A stretch of DNA of 55,692 nucleotides from assembly GCF_002087085.1 (NCBI RefSeq), contig NZ_MWQY01000014.1, positions 62,001-117,692 of the forward strand, read 5' to 3'. The translations under genes and the position numbers were made by a program. Shown one piece after another: positions 28,913-37,292 of this stretch; position 1 is the first letter of the stretch, and every line of letters begins with the position of its first letter. The notes beneath the pieces were generated by a model. The model was not told where the DNA came from. It saw only the letters and a program-made list of their open reading frames with translations, and made no database searches.

Positions 28913-30045
28913 CGGAGACCTCCCTGCCTGGTATCGCTTCGGGAAATATTGTGCAGCAAACCGCACATGATCATGGTAATTATAAGAGAGGAACCCCCGG
29001 AGGAAAAAAACGGAAGAGGAATCCCCGTAGCCGGAACGAGGCCGGCAACGACCGCCATGTTGAACAGGGCCTGCAGGAAAATAGCGCTTACACAGCCGAA
29101 ACCCAGGAGAAACGAGAAGGAATCTCCGCTTTTCAGGGCGATTCCGTAGCCCCTGACCGCGAAAATCACAAATACGGTTATGATGGCAAGGACTCCCAGC
29201 AGACCCGCCTCTTCCGCAAGGACGGCAAATACAAAGTCCGAATGGGCTTCGGGAAGCCCTCCGATTTTTTCGGTTCCATGTCCAAGTCCGGCGCCCATGA
29301 AGCCGCCCTTCTCCAGGGCATCCCTGGCGGCGATAACCTGATACCCCGTACCCACCGGATCGAGTTCCGGCTGCAGGAAGGCTATTATTCTCTGTACCCG
29401 GTGTTCCTTCGTGAAAATCAGCATGGCCCCCAGGGGAATAATCGCGGTCATCAGGAAAAGAAAATAGGAAAGTTTTACGCCGGAAACAAAAAATATTGCC
29501 CCGCTTACAGCAACAAGAAAGAAGGCTGTGGAGAAGTCATTCTGGCTGTAGATGATTAAGGCAAAAAGAGCAGTAATGATCAGAGGAGGAAGAACCGTAT
29601 TAACCAGATCGTCCAGACGGTCCTTCTTTTTGCTGAAAAAGTGGGCAAGATAGACAATCAGCGCGAGCTTTGCCAGTTCCGACGGCTGGAAGGAGTTGCC
29701 GAAGAGGAAAACCCAGCGCCGGGCTCCCATCAGCTCACCGCCGATACCGGGAACAAAGGGAAGCAGCAGAGTGAAGCCGCTCAAGAGGAGAAAGGGAGCC
29801 ACCATTTTCCGCAGTACTTCCAGAGAAACCCGGGCGGCCGCAAGGAACCCGACGCCCCCAAGCAGAAGAAACACTCCCCGTTTGAGGAGGAAATGATAAG
29901 AGTTTCCGAATTTCAATTCTCCGTAATAATAGGAGGCGGAAAACAGGAAGGCCGCCCCGAGCCCTGCCAGGAGCACCATTACACCGGTGAAGACAGGATC
30001 GGGAGGACGGGTATCTACTCTTTCCGCAACAAATATATTTCTCAT
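28909..30045 (-). CDS. ftsW: SEDS peptidoglycan polymerase FtsW
   Basis: GARRW, FQPSELAK, PEAHSDFVF, PATGIPLPFFSSGGSS. Confidence 0.97.
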   Translation of the reverse strand: MRNIFVAERVDTRPPDPVFTGVMVLLAGLGAAFLFSASYYYGELKFGNSYHFLLKRGVFLLLGGVGFLAAARVSLEVLRKMVAPFLLLSGFTLLLPFVPGIGGELMGARRWVFLFGNSFQPSELAKLALIVYLAHFFSKKKDRLDDLVNTVLPPLIITALFALIIYSQNDFSTAFFLVAVSGAIFFVSGVKLSYFLFLMTAIIPLGAMLIFTKEHRVQRIIAFLQPELDPVGTGYQVIAARDALEKGGFMGAGLGHGTEKIGGLPEAHSDFVFAVLAEEAGLLGVLAIITVFVIFAVRGYGIALKSGDSFSFLLGFGCVSAIFLQALFNMAVVAGLVPATGIPLPFFSSGGSSLIITMIMCGLLHNISRSDTRQGGLR

Positions 30046-31124
30046 TACTGCAGCTTAAGCGTCGAAAGACTGAGGATCGCAAAAAGACCACCGAGAATCC
30101 AGAAGCGTATCACGACCTTGCTTTCGTCCCATCCTTTCAGTTCAAAATGATGATGCAGCGGGGCCATCTTGAAGACCCGCTTTTTCCTGAACTTGTACGA
30201 AACAACCTGTATTATCACCGACATTGCTTCGAGAACAAAAACTCCGCCTACAATAATCAGGAGGACCTCTTTTTTTATCATCAGGGCAATAACACCCAGC
30301 ACGCCCCCCAGGGCCAGGCTTCCGGTGTCCCCCATGAAGACCTCCGCTGGATGAGCATTGTACCAGAGGAAGCCCACGCTCGCCCCTACAAGGGCAAGGC
30401 AGGGTATGGCGAGCTCCCCACCCTCACGGATGTAGGGTACCAGGAGATACTCAGCGTAGTCGGCACGTCCCGTCAGGTAGGTCAGCAGTGTAAAGGCAAG
30501 CCCGACCAGGATAACAAGACCAATGGCCAGTCCGTCGAGACCGTCGGTAAGATTCACCGCGTTGGATGTAAATACCAGCAGAAGAACAGAAAAAGGAATA
30601 TACAGCAGTCCGAGATCGACCACAGGATGCTTGAAGAAAGGTATATACAGAAGGGTTGTATACTCGGTTCTGTTCATATACAGATAGATGACGACCCCTC
30701 CGGCGATCAGCACCTGCCCCAGCAGCTTTGAGGAGACACTCAAACCGGCGGACGAACCCCTGAGAATCTTCAGGTAATCATCCAGAAAACCGATAAAGGC
30801 AAAGCCCATCAGGGCGGCCAGGGCAATCCAGGTATACATATTATGCAGATCCTGCCACAGCAGAACCGATACAAGAATGGAAACCAGGATAAGCAGTCCG
30901 CCCATTGTGGGAGTTCCGGATTTGACCAGGTGGCTTTCCGGTCCGTCATTGCGAATGGACTGACGGAATTTAAGGCGCCGCAGGAAGCTGATCATTGAGG
31001 GCCCCAGAATAAAGGAGACAAACAGAGCCGTCACAGCGGCGTAGGCCCCGCGGAAGGTTATGTACTGAAAAATGTTGAAGGCGGTTTCAAATTTAACCAG
31101 AGGCAGAAGCAGCTCTTTCAGCAT
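30045..31124 (-). CDS. mraY: Phospho-N-acetylmuramoyl-pentapeptide transferase
   Basis: KSGTPTMGG, NLTDGLDGL, FMGDTGSL, APLHHHFE. Confidence 0.98.
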   Translation of the reverse strand: MLKELLLPLVKFETAFNIFQYITFRGAYAAVTALFVSFILGPSMISFLRRLKFRQSIRNDGPESHLVKSGTPTMGGLLILVSILVSVLLWQDLHNMYTWIALAALMGFAFIGFLDDYLKILRGSSAGLSVSSKLLGQVLIAGGVVIYLYMNRTEYTTLLYIPFFKHPVVDLGLLYIPFSVLLLVFTSNAVNLTDGLDGLAIGLVILVGLAFTLLTYLTGRADYAEYLLVPYIREGGELAIPCLALVGASVGFLWYNAHPAEVFMGDTGSLALGGVLGVIALMIKKEVLLIIVGGVFVLEAMSVIIQVVSYKFRKKRVFKMAPLHHHFELKGWDESKVVIRFWILGGLFAILSLSTLKLQ

Positions 31125-32518
31125 ACCTGCCTCCTGACGGATCCTTCCTGCAAAGCTTCGGCTATACGCTCAAGGCCGAGAGCCCGGGAACCCTTCAGAT
31201 AGACGAGATCCCCGGGACGGACATATTCCAGCAGGTCAGCCTTCAGCTTGACATCCTCGGCACTCCAGAAGGCGGAATTTCCGCCCGCAGCTTTGTACGC
31301 GGAATAGGCATACCGGGCCTCGGGTCCAAGAAAAAACCAGGCGTCGAAACCGCTTGCGGCGCACACCCTGCCCGCCTCTTCGTGCAGCTCCTTCTCCAGG
31401 GAGCCGAGCTCCTTCATGGAACCGAATACGCCGACTCTTCGTCCCCTGGTCCATCCGCTGCTTTTAATCGTATCGAGACCGGCCCTGAGGCTCTCGGGAT
31501 TCGAATTGTAGCAATCCTGGTAAAGGGAAATGTCGCCGGAGATAAATTCACTGCGTCCAAAGGAGGGACTCACCTCTTCAATACCGCGGATAATGGAATT
31601 ATCCTCAGCGCCGCACAACTGGGCCACGGAGATTGCAGCACAGGCATTCATAACGTTATGCTCACCGGGCAGGCGCAGTTTAATCTGCTGTCCCTTGAAA
31701 TGAATGATCGATCCTTCAAGCCCCCTGTACTCGACTTTCTCAACCCCCGGAGTACTGCCGGGCCCAAAGCTGCCGAAGGTTCCGCGTTTGCCCGCCAGAA
31801 GGCGGGAAGCAAAGGGTTCATCTTCCCGGATCAGACCCCGGGAAAGGGAGTCAAAACTCGAGAAAATCCCCCCTTTTTCATCGGCTATCGCTTCCCTGGA
31901 ACCGAACATTCCGATATGGGCGGTTCCGATATTCGTAACCAGAGCGATATTCGGTTTCAGAATAGAAGCAAGAAGGGGTATTTCTCCCTGCCGGTTTGTT
32001 CCGAACTCAAATACACCGAAAAGATGTTCATGTCTAAGGCCAAAAACCGACAGGGGCAGACCTATTTCGGAATTATAATTCCCGGAGGACGCGTAGGTCG
32101 GACGATGATTTCGCAGAATTGAGGCCAGAAGCTCTTTCGTTGTTGTCTTGCCGTTGCTGCCGGTAACAGCGATCTTCAGAACCGAAGAATACCTGTCCAG
32201 ATACCAGCGTGCCAGCTCCTGCAGAGCCGCCAGGGGATCCTTCACAAGGATAAAAGGCCCGGCCTCCCGTATTTCCAGAGGCAACAGTTCCCATTTATCC
32301 ACATCAGCCAGGGCTCCTGCAGCACCTGCTTCAAAAGCGGCCTTCAGGTATGCGTGGCCGTCGGTCTTCTCCCCCGGCAGGGCGACAAAAAGATCCCCTC
32401 CCGCGAGGGTCCTGGTATCGATGGATACCCCGGTAACCGAAGCTCCGCAGGAAGCGCCGACAAAACGTCCCGATACGGCATCCACTGCATTTTCCAGTGT
32501 AAAGAGAGAATCAGCCAT
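31118..32518 (-). CDS. murF: UDP-MurNAc-tripeptide D-Ala-D-Ala ligase
   Basis: TGSNGKTTTK, NSEIGLPL, DCYNSNPES, LKGSR. Confidence 0.96.
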   Translation of the reverse strand: MADSLFTLENAVDAVSGRFVGASCGASVTGVSIDTRTLAGGDLFVALPGEKTDGHAYLKAAFEAGAAGALADVDKWELLPLEIREAGPFILVKDPLAALQELARWYLDRYSSVLKIAVTGSNGKTTTKELLASILRNHRPTYASSGNYNSEIGLPLSVFGLRHEHLFGVFEFGTNRQGEIPLLASILKPNIALVTNIGTAHIGMFGSREAIADEKGGIFSSFDSLSRGLIREDEPFASRLLAGKRGTFGSFGPGSTPGVEKVEYRGLEGSIIHFKGQQIKLRLPGEHNVMNACAAISVAQLCGAEDNSIIRGIEEVSPSFGRSEFISGDISLYQDCYNSNPESLRAGLDTIKSSGWTRGRRVGVFGSMKELGSLEKELHEEAGRVCAASGFDAWFFLGPEARYAYSAYKAAGGNSAFWSAEDVKLKADLLEYVRPGDLVYLKGSRALGLERIAEALQEGSVRRQVC

Positions 32519-32792
32519 CATTCCCCCTTCCGGGAATTCGTACGCGAAGAATATCCTGCTGATCCGTTTTTTCCAGCCCCAGTTCTCTGGCAAGCTCACT
32601 GATTCGTGAGGGGGAAGAGGCGACTGCAATATTGACAATCATGAGTTTGTTTTCTTCAAACAGCTGTTGCTGCTCATCCTGCATCCTGGCAATATAGCGC
32701 TCTGCTTCCCAGAAACGGAATCCCTGCCAGATATTCAGAAAAAGCAGCGCCGGAACAGAAAACAACATAAAAACCACAAGTAAACGCTTCAT
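32511..32792 (-). CDS. ftsL: Cell division protein FtsL
   Basis: TM plus coiled coil, SPSRISELARELGL; follows rsmH. Confidence 0.85.
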   Translation of the reverse strand: MKRLLVVFMLFSVPALLFLNIWQGFRFWEAERYIARMQDEQQQLFEENKLMIVNIAVASSPSRISELARELGLEKTDQQDILRVRIPGRGNDG

Positions 32793-32794
32793 AC

Positions 32795-33742
32795 CTATTC
32801 CCACTCTTTCATTTTCCGGGCAACGCGAAATTTCGCGCTTCTGGACGGGGGATTATTGTGCTTTTCTTCCTCATCGGGAACAAGCGGCTTTTTGGTAAGA
32901 ATAGAAACAATCGGTTCCCCCTCACATTTACACATCGGCCAATCTTCAGGACAAGTACAGGTCTTATTCTTGCCCAGAAAGAAATGTTTCACAATCCTGT
33001 CTTCCAGACTGTGAAAGGAGATTACGCCCATTCTTCCTCCCGGAGCGAGTATACGCAGGGCATATTCCAGGGCCTGTTCCAGGCGGGCCAGCTCACCGTT
33101 CACCGCGATCCGTAAAGCCTGAAAGCAACGCGTGGCGGGGTGGATTCTTCCCCGGCGGTATTTGTCGGGTACAGCCTTCCAGATAACCTCTTCCAGGGCC
33201 TTACTGCTGGCAAGAGGTTTTACCGCGCGGGCCCGGACCACCGCCGCGGCAATTCGCCGGGAATACCGTTCTTCACCGTAGTGATAGAGGATATTCGCCA
33301 GCTGCTCTTCCGGATATTCATTTACAATATCCGCGGCGGTGGTCTCGAGACTCGTATCGAGCCTCATATCAAGAGGCTCGTCTGCACGGAAGGTAAATCC
33401 TCTTTCTCCCTTTTCAAAATGGAAGACGGAAATACCCAGATCAAAGAGTATAAGGTTCGGACGTTCCCCTCCCAGTGGATAGTCCTTGAAAAACAGATTA
33501 AACCAGGTATTGAAAAAACGAACCCTGGGCGCATAGGGGGCAAGCCGTTTTCTGGCAATGTCCTGAATAGCAGAATCGGCATCAAGGCCGACAACCTTCA
33601 GGTCCGGATACTTCTGCAGGAAAAGTTCAGAATGCCCCCCCTCGCCCATCGTACAATCGACGAGCAGGGCATCATTCTTTTCCGGCGCAAGATATTCCAG
33701 AACCTCTCTGCTCATTACCGGAACATGCACAATATCCGTCAT
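32795..33742 (-). CDS. rsmH: 16S rRNA m4C1402 methyltransferase
   Basis: HVPVM, DCTMGEGGHS, FQALRIAVN, SFHSLEDR, SRSAKFR. Confidence 0.97.
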   Translation of the reverse strand: MTDIVHVPVMSREVLEYLAPEKNDALLVDCTMGEGGHSELFLQKYPDLKVVGLDADSAIQDIARKRLAPYAPRVRFFNTWFNLFFKDYPLGGERPNLILFDLGISVFHFEKGERGFTFRADEPLDMRLDTSLETTAADIVNEYPEEQLANILYHYGEERYSRRIAAAVVRARAVKPLASSKALEEVIWKAVPDKYRRGRIHPATRCFQALRIAVNGELARLEQALEYALRILAPGGRMGVISFHSLEDRIVKHFFLGKNKTCTCPEDWPMCKCEGEPIVSILTKKPLVPDEEEKHNNPPSRSAKFRVARKMKEWE

Positions 33743-33763
33743 CCCCATTCCTTGCTCAAAAAT

Positions 33764-34204
33764 TTAGAGGGAAAGTATTTTTCCCAGCTCCTCGGCGGCT
33801 GCCATGAACTCTTCTTCGTTGGATTCGAGATCTTCCTGGTAGGAAGATTCGTTCCATATTTCCATATAGTTTTCCAGCCCGAGGATTATCGTCTCCTTGT
33901 TCAGATCAGCATACTCCCGCAGGGTCGGAGGAATTGTGATCCTGCCCGCTTTGTCTATTTCCACTTCCTGGGCAGGAGCAATGATGCGGCGCTTCAGGAT
34001 ACGCGCCCTTTTCTGAAAAAGGGAAGTCGACTGGGTAAGCTGTTCAGCCAGAGACTTCCACTGTTCAAGAGGAAAAAGCCAGAGACAGGTTTCGACCCCC
34101 CGGGTCAGCACGAGGCGCTCCCCTTCGAGATCCGTCCGGAGTTTGGACGGGATCAGAAGTCGTCCCTTGTCGTCCAGGGAGTTTTTATATTCCCCGGTAA
34201 TCAC
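33764..34204 (-). CDS. mraZ: Transcriptional regulator MraZ
   Basis: Two DxxGR motifs (DDKGR, DKAGR); first gene of the dcw cluster; GTG start. Confidence 0.97.
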   Translation of the reverse strand: MITGEYKNSLDDKGRLLIPSKLRTDLEGERLVLTRGVETCLWLFPLEQWKSLAEQLTQSTSLFQKRARILKRRIIAPAQEVEIDKAGRITIPPTLREYADLNKETIILGLENYMEIWNESSYQEDLESNEEEFMAAAEELGKILSL

Positions 34205-34211
34205 CCTGGCC

Positions 34212-34247
34212 TACCACTTTTCTCTACAATCTCCCACTTTTCCCCAC
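34212..34247 (-). promoter_or_regulatory. MraZ-binding repeats (4 copies, 10-bp period)
   Basis: Minus strand GTGGGG-aaaa-GTGGGA-gatt-GTAGAG-aaaa-GTGGTA directly upstream of mraZ. Confidence 0.85.
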
Positions 34248-34258
34248 ACATAGTAACA

Positions 34259-34286
34259 ATACTACCTCACCAGCCAAAATTGTCAA
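34259..34286 (-). promoter_or_regulatory. Sigma70 promoter of the dcw cluster
   Basis: TTGACA-N16-TAGTAT immediately upstream of the MraZ repeats. Confidence 0.65.
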
Positions 34287-34303
34287 CGTCAATTCTTTTT
34301 AAT

Positions 34304-34331
34304 TAAAGTATTTGCGAAGAGATGCCGATAC
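34304..34331 (+). promoter_or_regulatory. Sigma28 (FliA)-type promoter for the DUF1820 gene pair
   Basis: TAAA-N16-GCCGATAC, one mismatch from consensus, 69 nt upstream of the GTG at 34401. Confidence 0.7.
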
Positions 34332-34400
34332 TATCAGCTTTACGTTTGTGTAGTAGCAAAAGATTTGCAGCTGGGTAATCATTGATCCGGAGGAATCATT

Positions 34401-34697
34401 GTGTCGATTTACCGGGTCCATTTTTCCTGGAAAGGCAAGGAAGTAAGCCTGAAAGCCCGCAGTCTGGATCTGACCCACCCCTACTTTGTTTCAATCAAGG
34501 ATCTGATTCTGCCGAAGAACAGCAGCCTCATTATCAACCCCGCGGAAGACGATTTTCGCAAGGAGTTCTCCGAGGCGAAGCACATTATGTTGCCCTTTCA
34601 AAGCGTCTCCCTGATTGAGGAACTGCCCGAAGAGAACGCCGAAGGACCAAAGACCCTGAATTTCGTAAAAAAAGAGGAAGAGGACAAACCTGAATGA
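34401..34697 (+). CDS. DUF1820-family protein
   Basis: GGAGG RBS, GTG start; IYRVHF...LIINPAEDDFRKEF...IMLPFQSVSLIEE resembles the DUF1820 pattern (recalled). Confidence 0.7.
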   Translation: MSIYRVHFSWKGKEVSLKARSLDLTHPYFVSIKDLILPKNSSLIINPAEDDFRKEFSEAKHIMLPFQSVSLIEELPEENAEGPKTLNFVKKEEEDKPE

Positions 34698-34945
34698 CCC
34701 TGCAGGAGTATTATATTGTCTATCCCGACGGAGACCGGCAGGAAATCGAATTCCCCCTTCGGGTCAACCAGGTTGTAGACCTGAACGGAAGACCTCTCCG
34801 ACCATCATGGCCGGCGCCGAGGATAATTGCCTACCGTATCTGCAAGGTGCGAACCACCGAGGAACGGGGCTTTTTGCGACGGTTCTATTATGCTGAACTC
34901 ATGACTATGGAACAGCTTGAATCCTATGCCCGGCATGGAGAGTAA
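34694..34945 (+). CDS. Small hypothetical protein (83 aa)
   Basis: ATGA overlap with the DUF1820 gene; fills the gap to the convergent GH57 gene. Confidence 0.7.
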   Translation: MTLQEYYIVYPDGDRQEIEFPLRVNQVVDLNGRPLRPSWPAPRIIAYRICKVRTTEERGFLRRFYYAELMTMEQLESYARHGE

Positions 34946-34957
34946 AAGCCCTTTTTT

Positions 34958-36547
34958 TCAGCCGTTTTCCTTGAATATTCTATAATCAATATCCGGAAAA
35001 ACATTGTTCTTTTTTTCGATTCCGGTTACCCATTCGGTATCCACGGTGTTACGGCACAGGTTGTCGTATATGCGATTGAAGTTATACAGGTGTTCCTTTA
35101 TGCGCTTCTCCGCGTAGGGAATCGTTGTACCGGTCTTGATAATAAATGGCCAGTCCGAAGCCTGGCTCAGAAGCACCTCCCGGGCTGCCTGATTCAGAAC
35201 CCGCAGCTTGAGTCCGGACTCAGCAGGGTAACGCTTCACCAGGTCCTTCATCCGCTCTATGGCCTTGTGAACGTGCCGGTATATCCAGTCATTGCTGCCG
35301 TCGATCCATACCTCGGCGTATCCCTTGTTTCCCCAGCTGGAGAAGGTCGGTTCACCCCTGGGATTATCAGGGTAAACTTCAAGATAATCGCTGGGGGTAA
35401 GCATTTCAAGGCCGTCACCGGATTCAGCCATCAAACGAATCAGAGATTCAAGCCACTGTGGCCCTTCAAACCACCAGTGACCAAAAAGTTCCGCATCGTA
35501 GGGACAGACGATAACCGGAGGTCGGTCCATAAAACGCGACAGTTTGTCCGCCTGTTTTACCCTGTTGTAGAGAAAGTTCTCCGCGTGATCCTGGGCCTTC
35601 GCCGCTGCCACCCCGGGATCGTAGGGGCGCTTTTTATCAGTCTTTCCCGTAATCGCATAGTACTTGAAGCCTGTATATACGCGGATATCATCATCATGAA
35701 TATAGGGCCGGATATAATCCATGGGCAGATCGAAGCCGATGTCCCGGTAAAACTCGCGATACGCGAAGTCTCCGGGATACCCCTCCTCTTCTGACCAGAC
35801 CGCCCGGGAGGACGGAATATCCCGACCGAAAAGGGGAAGTCCGTTCCGGCATTCCATGGGAGCATAGATGCCGTAGGGGGACTTGGTATCGGAGAAAAGA
35901 ATACCGTGGGGTGAAGCTATGCTGTAGTTCAGGTTGTACTGTTTGATGATCCGCTCGACTCCGGGATAATAACCGCATTCGGGCAGCCAGAATCCTTTTG
36001 GGGCGGTACCGAAAAGCCGCCCGTGATTTATTACCGCCGTATGGATCTGGGCCTCCACGGCTTCCGGGTACTCCTCGAAGAGGGGCAGAAAGGCGTGAGT
36101 CGCTGCAGTGGTAATAAGCTCTATATGCCCTGATTTTTCCAGCTCCCGTATTCCCCTGAGAATGTTGTTCTTGTACAGAACAGTAAAATCCTGATAATTC
36201 TGATCCAGCAGCTCTTTGTACATCCTCACCACAGGACGAAACTGCTCGTCATCCCGGGTGCGCAGAAGCTCCTTGCTGGCCAGCTCGAGCTGCTTTTCCA
36301 GATGACCCACATACCGTTTCTGCAGGAGTTCGTCATTCAGCATGCTCGCAAGAGTCGGAGATACCGAGAGGGTTATCCTGAAGGGGATTCCCTCTTCCTT
36401 CAATGCGAAAAACCGGCGAAGCAGGGGAAGATAGGTTTCCGATATAGCCTCAAAAAGCCAGTTTTCCTCAAGAAAGTGTGCATACTCCGGATGGCGCACA
36501 AAAGGCAAATGGGCATGTAAAACAAAACTGAGATATCCTCTCGGCAT
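34958..36547 (-). CDS. GH57 (DUF1957) 1,4-alpha-glucan branching enzyme
   Basis: LHAHLP, ETYLPL, WLPECGY (nucleophile Glu), PYDAELFGHWWFEG (acid/base Asp), QASDWPF. Confidence 0.92.
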   Translation of the reverse strand: MPRGYLSFVLHAHLPFVRHPEYAHFLEENWLFEAISETYLPLLRRFFALKEEGIPFRITLSVSPTLASMLNDELLQKRYVGHLEKQLELASKELLRTRDDEQFRPVVRMYKELLDQNYQDFTVLYKNNILRGIRELEKSGHIELITTAATHAFLPLFEEYPEAVEAQIHTAVINHGRLFGTAPKGFWLPECGYYPGVERIIKQYNLNYSIASPHGILFSDTKSPYGIYAPMECRNGLPLFGRDIPSSRAVWSEEEGYPGDFAYREFYRDIGFDLPMDYIRPYIHDDDIRVYTGFKYYAITGKTDKKRPYDPGVAAAKAQDHAENFLYNRVKQADKLSRFMDRPPVIVCPYDAELFGHWWFEGPQWLESLIRLMAESGDGLEMLTPSDYLEVYPDNPRGEPTFSSWGNKGYAEVWIDGSNDWIYRHVHKAIERMKDLVKRYPAESGLKLRVLNQAAREVLLSQASDWPFIIKTGTTIPYAEKRIKEHLYNFNRIYDNLCRNTVDTEWVTGIEKKNNVFPDIDYRIFKENG

Positions 36548-36557
36548 AAAAATCCTC

Positions 36558-37292
36558 TTAATTAGTCAGATGTACGTACTGGCTGTCTATCAGTGAGATT
36601 ATTCTCTGAGGAATCTCATCTTTCTCATCGGCGATGTTTACATCAAAGAGTCCCGACAGAAAAAGGGTTTCAAGCAGCGGATTGTCGGCGGACTTCATCT
36701 CTTCCTGAACATCTCCCCGGGGACTGGAAATTATATTCGATCTGCATAATCGCTTTATGGATCCCTTGGTAATCGAAACCAGGTCGATGCAGTAACGGAT
36801 TCCGCTCTGGGGCAGGTTGATGTACCAGCAGTCGTCGGAAAGCGAGACGGGAATGTCAAAATAGTCACTGAAACTCTTGATCGTCAGTTCACCGTCAGGG
36901 AGGGTATACACACGGAGGAAAAGCTCCGTAAGCCCCTCGGAGCGCTTTATTTCAGCAGCCTCGGAAGGGAATATCTCCCAGTAACAGAAAGCCCAGTAAG
37001 GATCCCTGAGCATCAGAAAAATTTTCGTTTCGTTATAGCTTTGAGGAATCGGATACTCATTGTCATCCGAAATAAAGATATCTTCATCCTGAACGACCTC
37101 GTATTTCTTTTCCTTTATCCGCATTGCAAGATTATTTAAAACCTCGCGATCCACACGGTCCTCGTCAAGGGCCTCGATAATCTGCTCGACGAGTTCTTCC
37201 CTCCCCGTTTCAGGAGAAAAATGAACTCCTTCTTTGCGTGCAAGCTCCCGGATTATCTCGTCGGAGAGTCCTAAAAGACGCTCTTTGGTCAT
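36558..37292 (-). CDS. DUF4912-domain protein with N-terminal Rho_N/HeH-like helices
   Basis: YNETKIFLMLRDPYWAFCYWEI...WYINLP...RSN pattern; directly upstream of GH57. Confidence 0.8.
   Translation of the reverse strand: MTKERLLGLSDEIIRELARKEGVHFSPETGREELVEQIIEALDEDRVDREVLNNLAMRIKEKKYEVVQDEDIFISDDNEYPIPQSYNETKIFLMLRDPYWAFCYWEIFPSEAAEIKRSEGLTELFLRVYTLPDGELTIKSFSDYFDIPVSLSDDCWYINLPQSGIRYCIDLVSITKGSIKRLCRSNIISSPRGDVQEEMKSADNPLLETLFLSGLFDVNIADEKDEIPQRIISLIDSQYVHLTN

Follow-up and report, generated by a model that had tools for sequence, protein, structure and literature searches.

In Escherichia coli and Salmonella the class 3 promoters read by FliA (sigma-28) follow the consensus TAAAGTTT-N11-GCCGATAA, and in enteric bacteria and Bacillus it is established that class 3 genes are expressed after completion of the hook-basal body. 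Sigma factors of the FliA/WhiG family also have targets in cell division and separation: the sigma-D regulon of Bacillus subtilis holds motility genes and also LytC, LytD and LytF, autolysins by which daughter cells are separated, and WhiG of Streptomyces acts in sporulation septation; to our knowledge ftsK is a target of neither sigma-D nor WhiG. Spirochaete sigma-28 regulons are small and poorly mapped, and dividing spirochaetes must build new flagellar motors at their future poles. The division and cell wall (dcw) genes of E. coli are driven by Pmra, a promoter autoregulated by MraZ, as in Mollicutes, where the MraZ boxes read AAAGTG; we know of no description of a small TP_0666-family gene facing mraZ. 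In Treponema denticola the sigma-28 promoter PflaB2, whose start was mapped, has TTAA as its -35 and CCGATAA as its -10 element; of the four filament genes there, flaB2 alone is attributed to sigma-28 (PMC9481697). Here we describe a sigma-28-type site in G000:C6:62001-117692, a stretch of 55,692 bases (the window; positions without a prefix refer to it) of the genome, G000, of a free-living spirochaete (4.22 Mb, 53% G+C). The site, at 34304-34331 on the + strand, stands between mraZ and two divergent small genes, ORF1 (DUF1820) and ORF2 (TP_0666 family), and is probably the promoter of a FliA-dependent bicistronic DUF1820/ORF2 operon. Judged from its sequence and conservation, a sigma-28-type promoter before two orphan genes would be a real addition to a known kind of promoter regulon.

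Direct reading of the + strand gives TAAA at 34304-34307, 16 nucleotides (nt), and then GCCGATAC at 34324-34331; in octamer form this is TAAAGTAT-N12-GCCGATAC, with the -35 element TAAAGTAT at 34304-34311, a 12-nt spacer at 34312-34323, of fixed length and varying letters in the genus alignment, and the -10 element GCCGATAC at 34324-34331. An earlier note on this DNA, made from its letters alone, had pointed to a TAAA-N16 sigma-28 motif ahead of two open reading frames (ORFs), and the motif is indeed there once: TAAA-N16-GCCGATA has a single match in the window, where 0.02 are expected (100 shuffles, 2 of which contained a match). The GTG start of ORF1 (98 amino acids; 34401-34697, +) lies 69 nt downstream of the site and 7 nt after a Shine-Dalgarno sequence, GGAGG (34389-34393, +), where GAGGA is invariant in the genus alignment. 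ORF1, assigned to DUF1820 from Pfam and the ORF list, ends in a TGA that overlaps the ATG of ORF2 (83 amino acids; 34694-34945, +) as ATGA, and ORF2 was placed by profile search in a TP_0666-like spirochaete family that has no Pfam model. The translational coupling read into the pair by the earlier note is borne out by this overlap, which is kept as (A/G)TGA in all six genomes of the genus.

For a genome-wide comparison 3,411 genes were called with our own codon-usage model, and TAAAGTTT-Nx-GCCGATAA was scored at every intergenic position no more than 300 nt from a gene. The site scores 14/16 and is joint top of the genome with one that precedes the gene of a secreted 144-amino-acid protein; its -10 element matches GCCGATAA at 7/8 positions, with the CGA core kept. 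Among spacers of 5-20 only a spacer of 12 is enriched (4 sites at 13/16 or better, against 0-2 at each of the others), and the strict form T[AT]AA-N17-CCGATA occurs at five sites genome-wide as against 0-2 for each other gap from 11 to 23. It could be argued that the site is nevertheless a chance match without function, as one of these five, before the gene of a helix-turn-helix (HTH)-cupin regulator, looks like a product of chance itself. Such a coincidence is hardly credible, given the 0.02 chance matches expected per window and the invariance of the site around a diverged spacer in all six genomes.

This footprint was followed in a genus set of six genomes (G000 and five others) and an order set of seven. 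The order of mraZ, DUF1820 and ORF2 is identical in 6/6 genus genomes; ORF2 was found in six of the seven order genomes, that is in every genome of the genus, and was not found in the single genome of the order's second genus, which is 81% complete. In the intergenic alignment of the six the -35 region ATTAAAG.A.TT and the -10 region CCGATACT are invariant and stand at a fixed distance with no alignment gaps, while none of the 11 spacer columns (110-120) is invariant; the distance from the site to the -35 element of mraZ is likewise fixed. Conservation was checked in the same way for the five strict sites and for three flaB genes. As a positive control, a conserved TAAAG...CCGA(T/A) was seen at all three flaB genes of the genus, with spacers of 11-13 (12-13 in one of these promoters), in agreement with the mapped PflaB2 of T. 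denticola (PMC9481697). The strict match before the HTH-cupin gene served as the negative control and is present in G000 alone (1/6). Because that match was lost across the genus, chance matches can be said to decay there, and the site before DUF1820 does not. Its joint-top match to the consensus, the single FliA/WhiG sigma of the genome and the clean footprint in 6/6 genomes together argue that the site is not due to chance. By reading, the region upstream of the HTH-cupin gene keeps a TTGAC-containing, sigma-70-like stretch in all six genomes.

The sigma factor in question is encoded at G000:C6:57177-57965 and scores 302 bits with TIGR02479 (cut-off 189.6) and 438 bits with NF004935 (cut-off 343), its best NCBIfam match being the 'WhiG' equivalog; the other three sigma paralogues scanned match RpoD/RpoS models best. 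The locus has features expected of a sigma-28 promoter, a -35 and a -10 element, a spacer of 11-12 and a FliA/WhiG sigma in the genome, and it resembles class 3 promoters in its bipartite TAAAG/GCCGATA, in the FliA-type sigma and in the presence of the same kind of site at the flaB genes of the genus.

The remaining strict sites bear on what this sigma factor may control. The one before ftsK, TAAATATC-N12-GCCGATAG (G000:C20:34470-34522; L085:471-523), lies about 26 nt before the TTG start of a gene whose 925-amino-acid product has FtsK_SpoIIIE, alpha and gamma domains, and both TAAA or TTAA and (G/A)CCGATA are kept there in 6/6 genomes on either side of diverged spacers. Before the 144-amino-acid gene (G000:C1:77042-77108, L084), whose secreted, Asp-rich product has no Pfam family, the full sigma-28-type site is again found in 6/6 with diverged spacers. 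The gene of an NlpC/P60 hydrolase (G000:C20:40149-40186, - strand, L085) keeps the -10 element TGCCGATA in 6/6 genomes and TAAA in 2/6; TGCCGATA sits about 10 nt before the ATG in all six, which suggests that the mRNA is nearly leaderless. On the pattern of conserved sites the sigma-28 regulon of the genus appears to extend past the flagellins to ftsK, the NlpC/P60 hydrolase and the secreted protein, a hint that late flagellar control may reach into cell division. The parallel with sigma-D and WhiG lies in a FliA/WhiG-family sigma with division and separation targets, represented here by conserved sites before ftsK and the NlpC/P60 gene; unlike those systems, which offer no counterpart of the DUF1820/TP_0666 pair, the regulon of the genus is a predicted one.

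Several observations weigh against a FliA-dependent promoter at the DUF1820 operon. The last base of the -10 element is C instead of A, and the spacer of 12 is one base longer than the N11 of E. coli; in contrast to class 3 promoters the genes downstream are non-flagellar, and the site fits the consensus better than the flaB promoters of the genus do. Indeed, the best-scoring sites of the genome as a whole precede non-flagellar genes, and the flaB sites are weaker (12/16 as against 14/16). No flagellar gene adjoins the pair, whose neighbours in the window are mraZ and a gene of a glycoside hydrolase of family 57 (GH57); the site and fliA are about 38 kb apart on the contig, and flaA is either some 93 kb distant or on a different contig. 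The six genomes are those of one genus and therefore not independent. A sigma-28-type site was found within 150 nt upstream in none of 18 DUF1820 loci outside the genus and, by reading, was not seen in the six loci of other families in which a TP_0666-family gene adjoins mraZ. TAAAG also occupies a position suited to an upstream element of the mraZ promoter. Finally, the short metatranscriptome contigs from four of the seven runs that contain small shares of the stretch include one that spans 34457-34658 in ORF1 and others in mraZ; none crosses the promoter, and such contigs can neither show a start nor exclude carry-over of DNA.

One alternative is that the housekeeping sigma factor uses an overlapping promoter, TTGTCA (34280-34285), 18 nt and TAAAGT (34304-34309), with CCGATAC as, for example, the site of a regulator. 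A promoter scan gives this combination 9/12, the genus conserves TTGTCA as well as TAAAG, and sigma-70-type promoters are the rule elsewhere in so far as TTGAC-N16-18-TAnnnT occurs within 150 nt upstream in 13 of the 18 DUF1820 loci outside the genus. It should be emphasized, however, that TTGTCA, as the complement of the mraZ -35 element, would be conserved in any case, that the final T of the supposed -10 is lost in one genome of the genus (TAAAGG in G002), and that a spacer of 18 nt with a 4/6 -10 would make a weak promoter. In favour of the sigma-28 reading, TTGAC-N16-18-TAnnnT was found within 150 nt upstream of DUF1820 in none of the six genus genomes. We regard the housekeeping alternative as improbable, as it also leaves unexplained both the invariance of CCGATACT at a fixed distance of 12 nt and the presence of GCCGATA before ftsK, the 144-amino-acid gene and the NlpC/P60 gene.

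The other side of the intergenic region raises a second alternative. mraZ (33764-34204, -; Pfam MraZ PF02381, E value 1.7e-39), the first dcw gene, is divergent from ORF1 and has a sigma-70-type promoter with a 10/12 match, made up of TTGACA (34286..34281), 16 nt and TAGTAT (34264..34259) on the - strand; the genus alignment shows no variation in the corresponding TTGTCAACG and ATACTA. The 17 bases at 34287-34303 separate TTGACA from TAAA, just as the earlier note had measured, and every feature that it had observed is present. The geometry would allow the two back-to-back promoters to interfere with each other or to be coupled. TAAAG and CCGATAC might be cis-elements that serve the mraZ/dcw promoter, either as an upstream element or as a place where a division regulator binds, with no more than a resemblance to sigma-28 elements: the two blocks are 17-50 nt from the mraZ -35 on its upstream side, the usual place of activator and UP sites, and the string TAAAGTATTTGC recurs, without CCGATA, at one mraZ-adjacent locus of another family (L052). 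The other five such loci have neither block by reading. The blocks fit both halves of a sigma-28 promoter at the spacing enriched in the genome, and the bipartite motif is conserved at three loci that have nothing to do with mraZ, so that a role confined to the mraZ promoter must be judged decidedly improbable.

Between the mraZ -10 element and the mraZ start, four boxes that read CCAC/CTAC, or GTGG/GTAG in the direction of mraZ, occupy 34214-34247, with starts at 34214, 34224, 34234 and 34244; the period is exactly 10 bp and the boxes are invariant in 6/6 genomes. From work on E. coli and Mollicutes we take these four boxes to be, probably, the autoregulatory operator of MraZ, and similar repeats were seen in the six mraZ-adjacent loci of other families. 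The region is like the MraZ-autoregulated Pmra in that mraZ comes first, its sigma-70-type promoter is strong and GTGG boxes spaced by 10 bp separate promoter from gene, and unlike it in the conserved divergent TP_0666-family gene that faces mraZ in spirochaetes.

ORF2 is without a Pfam or NCBIfam family in profile scans. A word-based search returned 14 relatives, and a profile search of 1.84 billion representatives returned 53, of which 34 had E values of 1e-10 or lower. The ORF2-family profile matches 29 of 401 Spirochaetota genomes, and proteins of T. pallidum, T. denticola and Gracilinema caldarium match it over their full length (E values 7e-22 to 1e-28); exact look-up names the first TP_0666 and the other two hypothetical proteins. 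The family is hence present in the treponemes of syphilis and of periodontitis. In six loci from four other families (L052, L054-L058) the TP_0666-family gene is directly divergent from mraZ, so that, with the genus studied here, a conserved TP_0666-family gene facing mraZ is found in at least five spirochaete families. By reading, DUF1820 and CCGATA are absent from these six loci; the mraZ boxes and TTGTCAA are recognizable, most clearly in L052 and L054-L056 and more weakly in L057 and L058. As the TP_0666-family gene faces mraZ elsewhere without DUF1820, the combination of DUF1820 and a sigma-28 site is specific to the genus. The pair of DUF1820 and the 83-amino-acid gene to which the earlier note drew attention is itself genus-specific: 27 of the 29 carrier genomes in the phylum sample have a TP_0666-family gene without DUF1820, and the 19 genomes with DUF1820 share with these 29 only G000 and G181, the two G181 genes being on different contigs. 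The two families are nearly mutually exclusive in the 401-genome sample.

The partners of the TP_0666-family gene also differ between spirochaetes. In Treponema and Gracilinema (L068, L060, L067, L057), where it is convergent with flaA, the next gene encodes a DUF8091 protein (TP_0665 in T. pallidum); Pfam and the PDB gave no sequence match for the DUF8091 group. In four further families (L069-L077) a protein of about 235 amino acids follows, with a Pfam CYTH match in 5/8 loci, and kinship between the two types of partner was rejected (hhalign probability 0.2, no detectable relationship). TDE1711 was also rejected as a 221-amino-acid partner gene, being a 410-amino-acid alarmone synthetase. 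The locus described here thus shares with the T. pallidum TP_0666-TP_0665 operon the family of ORF2, whereas in the Treponema operon a DUF8091 gene comes after and flaA is convergent, and in the genus here DUF1820 comes before, the promoter is of sigma-28 type and profile search finds no DUF8091 gene in G000. By reading, loci of the T. denticola type have a sigma-70-type TTGACA-N17-TAAACT upstream, as against the sigma-28-type site here. In a two-hybrid screen of T. pallidum, TP0665 is listed with the proteins of unknown function that bind FliG-2 (PMC1943423). This offers a lead from the family to the motor by way of its usual operon partner, and is no evidence on G000 itself, in which that partner is missing (no DUF8091 homologue by profile search). 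The literature searched holds no mention of TP0666 or TDE1710.

A further element is shared by these loci. Immediately downstream of the sigma-28 site, at what is predicted to be the 5' end of the transcript, lies a conserved block CTTTAC-GTTT-GTGTAG-TAG (34338-34356, +), the outer positions of which are palindromic (CT..AC N4 GT..AG) and which is present in the six genus loci. Five families have it, in the form CT(T/A)(T/C)AC-N4-GT(N)TAG-TAG, in the interval that separates mraZ from the TP_0666-family gene, whatever the type of promoter. By reading it also occurs in the six mraZ-adjacent loci that lack the sigma-28 motif, split by about 14 extra nt in L052 and degenerate in L055 and L056. An RNA hairpin is not supported, because the central positions are unpaired in 12 loci by reading, and the block looks more like the site of a dimeric DNA-binding protein. 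Minimum-free-energy folds of the 5' leaders of three genus members disagree, and a Rfam scan of 34150-34500 gave a PrrF match alone (E value 8.9), which was rejected.

ORF1 belongs to DUF1820 (PF08850, E value 6.2e-11; score 43.1 bits, cut-off 27), the assignment that the earlier note had made from its translation. It has 901 relatives at E values of 0.001 or lower, and PF08850 is found in all of the best 120 of the 901; the alignment of 36 DUF1820 relatives contains 27 invariant columns. Within the phylum DUF1820 occurs in 19 of the 401 sampled Spirochaetota genomes, at 50-66% identity to ORF1 (tblastn) with one locus at 47%. Profile search found no ORF2 relative within 1.5 kb of the 18 loci outside the genus. 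There the neighbours of DUF1820 are metabolic or varied: flagellar families were found in none of the 45 ORFs scanned, out of 65, at 17 loci, the near-duplicate locus L035 having been left out. The proposal that these proteins are members of the spirochaete motility regulon therefore holds in part, with a sigma-28 site at the level of the genus on the one hand and, on the other, no flagellar neighbours and no generality across spirochaetes. Similarly, the conservation of the motif upstream of orthologues in Spirochaetota, lack of which the earlier note had named as a refutation, is complete within the genus (6/6) and nil outside it (0/18). On these comparisons the genus-specific claim is supported and the general spirochaete claim is not. 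The literature search found no work on the function of DUF1820, and PF08850 is not mentioned in the literature searched.

All 24 spirochaete DUF1820 genes compared (the window and L013-L035) begin with a codon other than ATG, GTG in 14 and TTG in 10, and in 22/24 an in-frame upstream ATG is absent. This universal non-ATG start suggests that DUF1820 may be controlled at translation initiation.

If the site is indeed a sigma-28 promoter, the single FliA/WhiG-type sigma would read 34304-34331, transcription would start near 34338-34340, and a bicistronic, translationally coupled mRNA would encode the DUF1820 and TP_0666-family proteins. The timing follows from the use of FliA that we infer: expression would come after completion of the hook-basal body, in late flagellar assembly with the export of FlgM, as for class 3 genes. 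In the simplest history compatible with the loci compared, a TP_0666-family gene alone would have faced mraZ ancestrally, and a DUF1820 gene would later have entered its leader downstream of the conserved block, directly upstream of which the sigma-28 promoter of the genus would now stand. As sigma-28-type sites are found at ftsK, the NlpC/P60 gene and the secreted protein gene, the division site or new cell pole is the most likely setting in which the pair might act. A more far-reaching proposal, which we think unlikely, is that FliA times division and the separation of daughter cells through ftsK, the NlpC/P60 hydrolase and the DUF1820/TP_0666 operon, the two small proteins acting as one complex at the site of division, the place at which new periplasmic-flagellar motors arise. 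The two-hybrid report of TP_0665 with FliG-2 fits this proposal (PMC1943423). That the cleanest sigma-28 sites of the genus are found at ftsK, a peptidoglycan hydrolase and an operon abutting the dcw promoter provides a concrete way of testing how the completion of flagella may be coordinated with division, and first leads for two orphan families, DUF1820 and TP_0666; the interest of the locus is raised by the TP_0666 family as an old divergent neighbour of mraZ, by the type of promoter at ftsK and by the unusually conserved small DUF1820 protein.

Structure prediction of the pair, which the earlier note had suggested, returned no convincing solved relative for ORF2. The predicted ORF1-ORF2 complex scores 0.56 as against 0.36 for the best of three controls; at least 82% of contacts are common to its runs, and the partner has a predicted local distance difference test (pLDDT) value of at least 83. 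The pass mark for this score was met by 116/157 solved complexes and 2/215 mismatched pairs and, at scores of 0.60 or lower, by 18/157 solved complexes and both of the passing mismatches; the models lend weak support to the formation of an ORF1-ORF2 complex. Alone, ORF2 is modelled with confidence (pLDDT 90.2), with no convincing solved relative among structures searched (Foldseek E values of 0.097 or higher; best VIA Z 5.1). The DUF1820 model (pLDDT 69.9) is a small beta-barrel with one helix. Compared with Sm-like/Hfq proteins it gives weak alignments in Foldseek (E values of 0.06 or higher, template modelling (TM) score about 0.46), and VIA returns Z 6.5 for 3bdu and 6.0 for 3by7, with many Hfq/Lsm chains at about 5, where a Z below 8 may, according to the tool, mean a mere common arrangement. 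The likeness to Sm/Lsm/Hfq barrels is thus a weak similarity of fold (Z below 8), and the DUF1820 model differs from them in having a helix between strands 3 and 4 and no N-terminal Sm helix. Hfq (PF17209) was not found in G000, and an ESM Atlas search with ORF1 returned DUF1820 clusters alone. FlgV is the protein that was formerly mis-annotated as the Hfq of Borrelia. As a relative of DUF1820 it was rejected, since two transmembrane helices are described for FlgV (PMC11607428).

Around the intergenic region, mraZ is followed on the - strand by the dcw genes rsmH (32795-33748), murF (31118-32638) and mraY (30045-31124), all three named from their translations. A 388-amino-acid open frame (33140-34306, +), antisense to rsmH and mraZ and ending within the promoter region, was left unpicked by the codon-usage model and is probably a spurious ORF driven by G+C content. 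On the other side the operon is bounded by the convergent gene of a GH57 1,4-alpha-glucan branching enzyme (34958-36547, -; Pfam Glyco_hydro_57 and BE_C), the stop codon of which is 12 nt from that of ORF2; by reading there is no clear terminator hairpin between the two stop codons. A DUF4912 protein follows the branching enzyme (34958-37292, -, for the two together), and this pair resembles glycogen metabolism.

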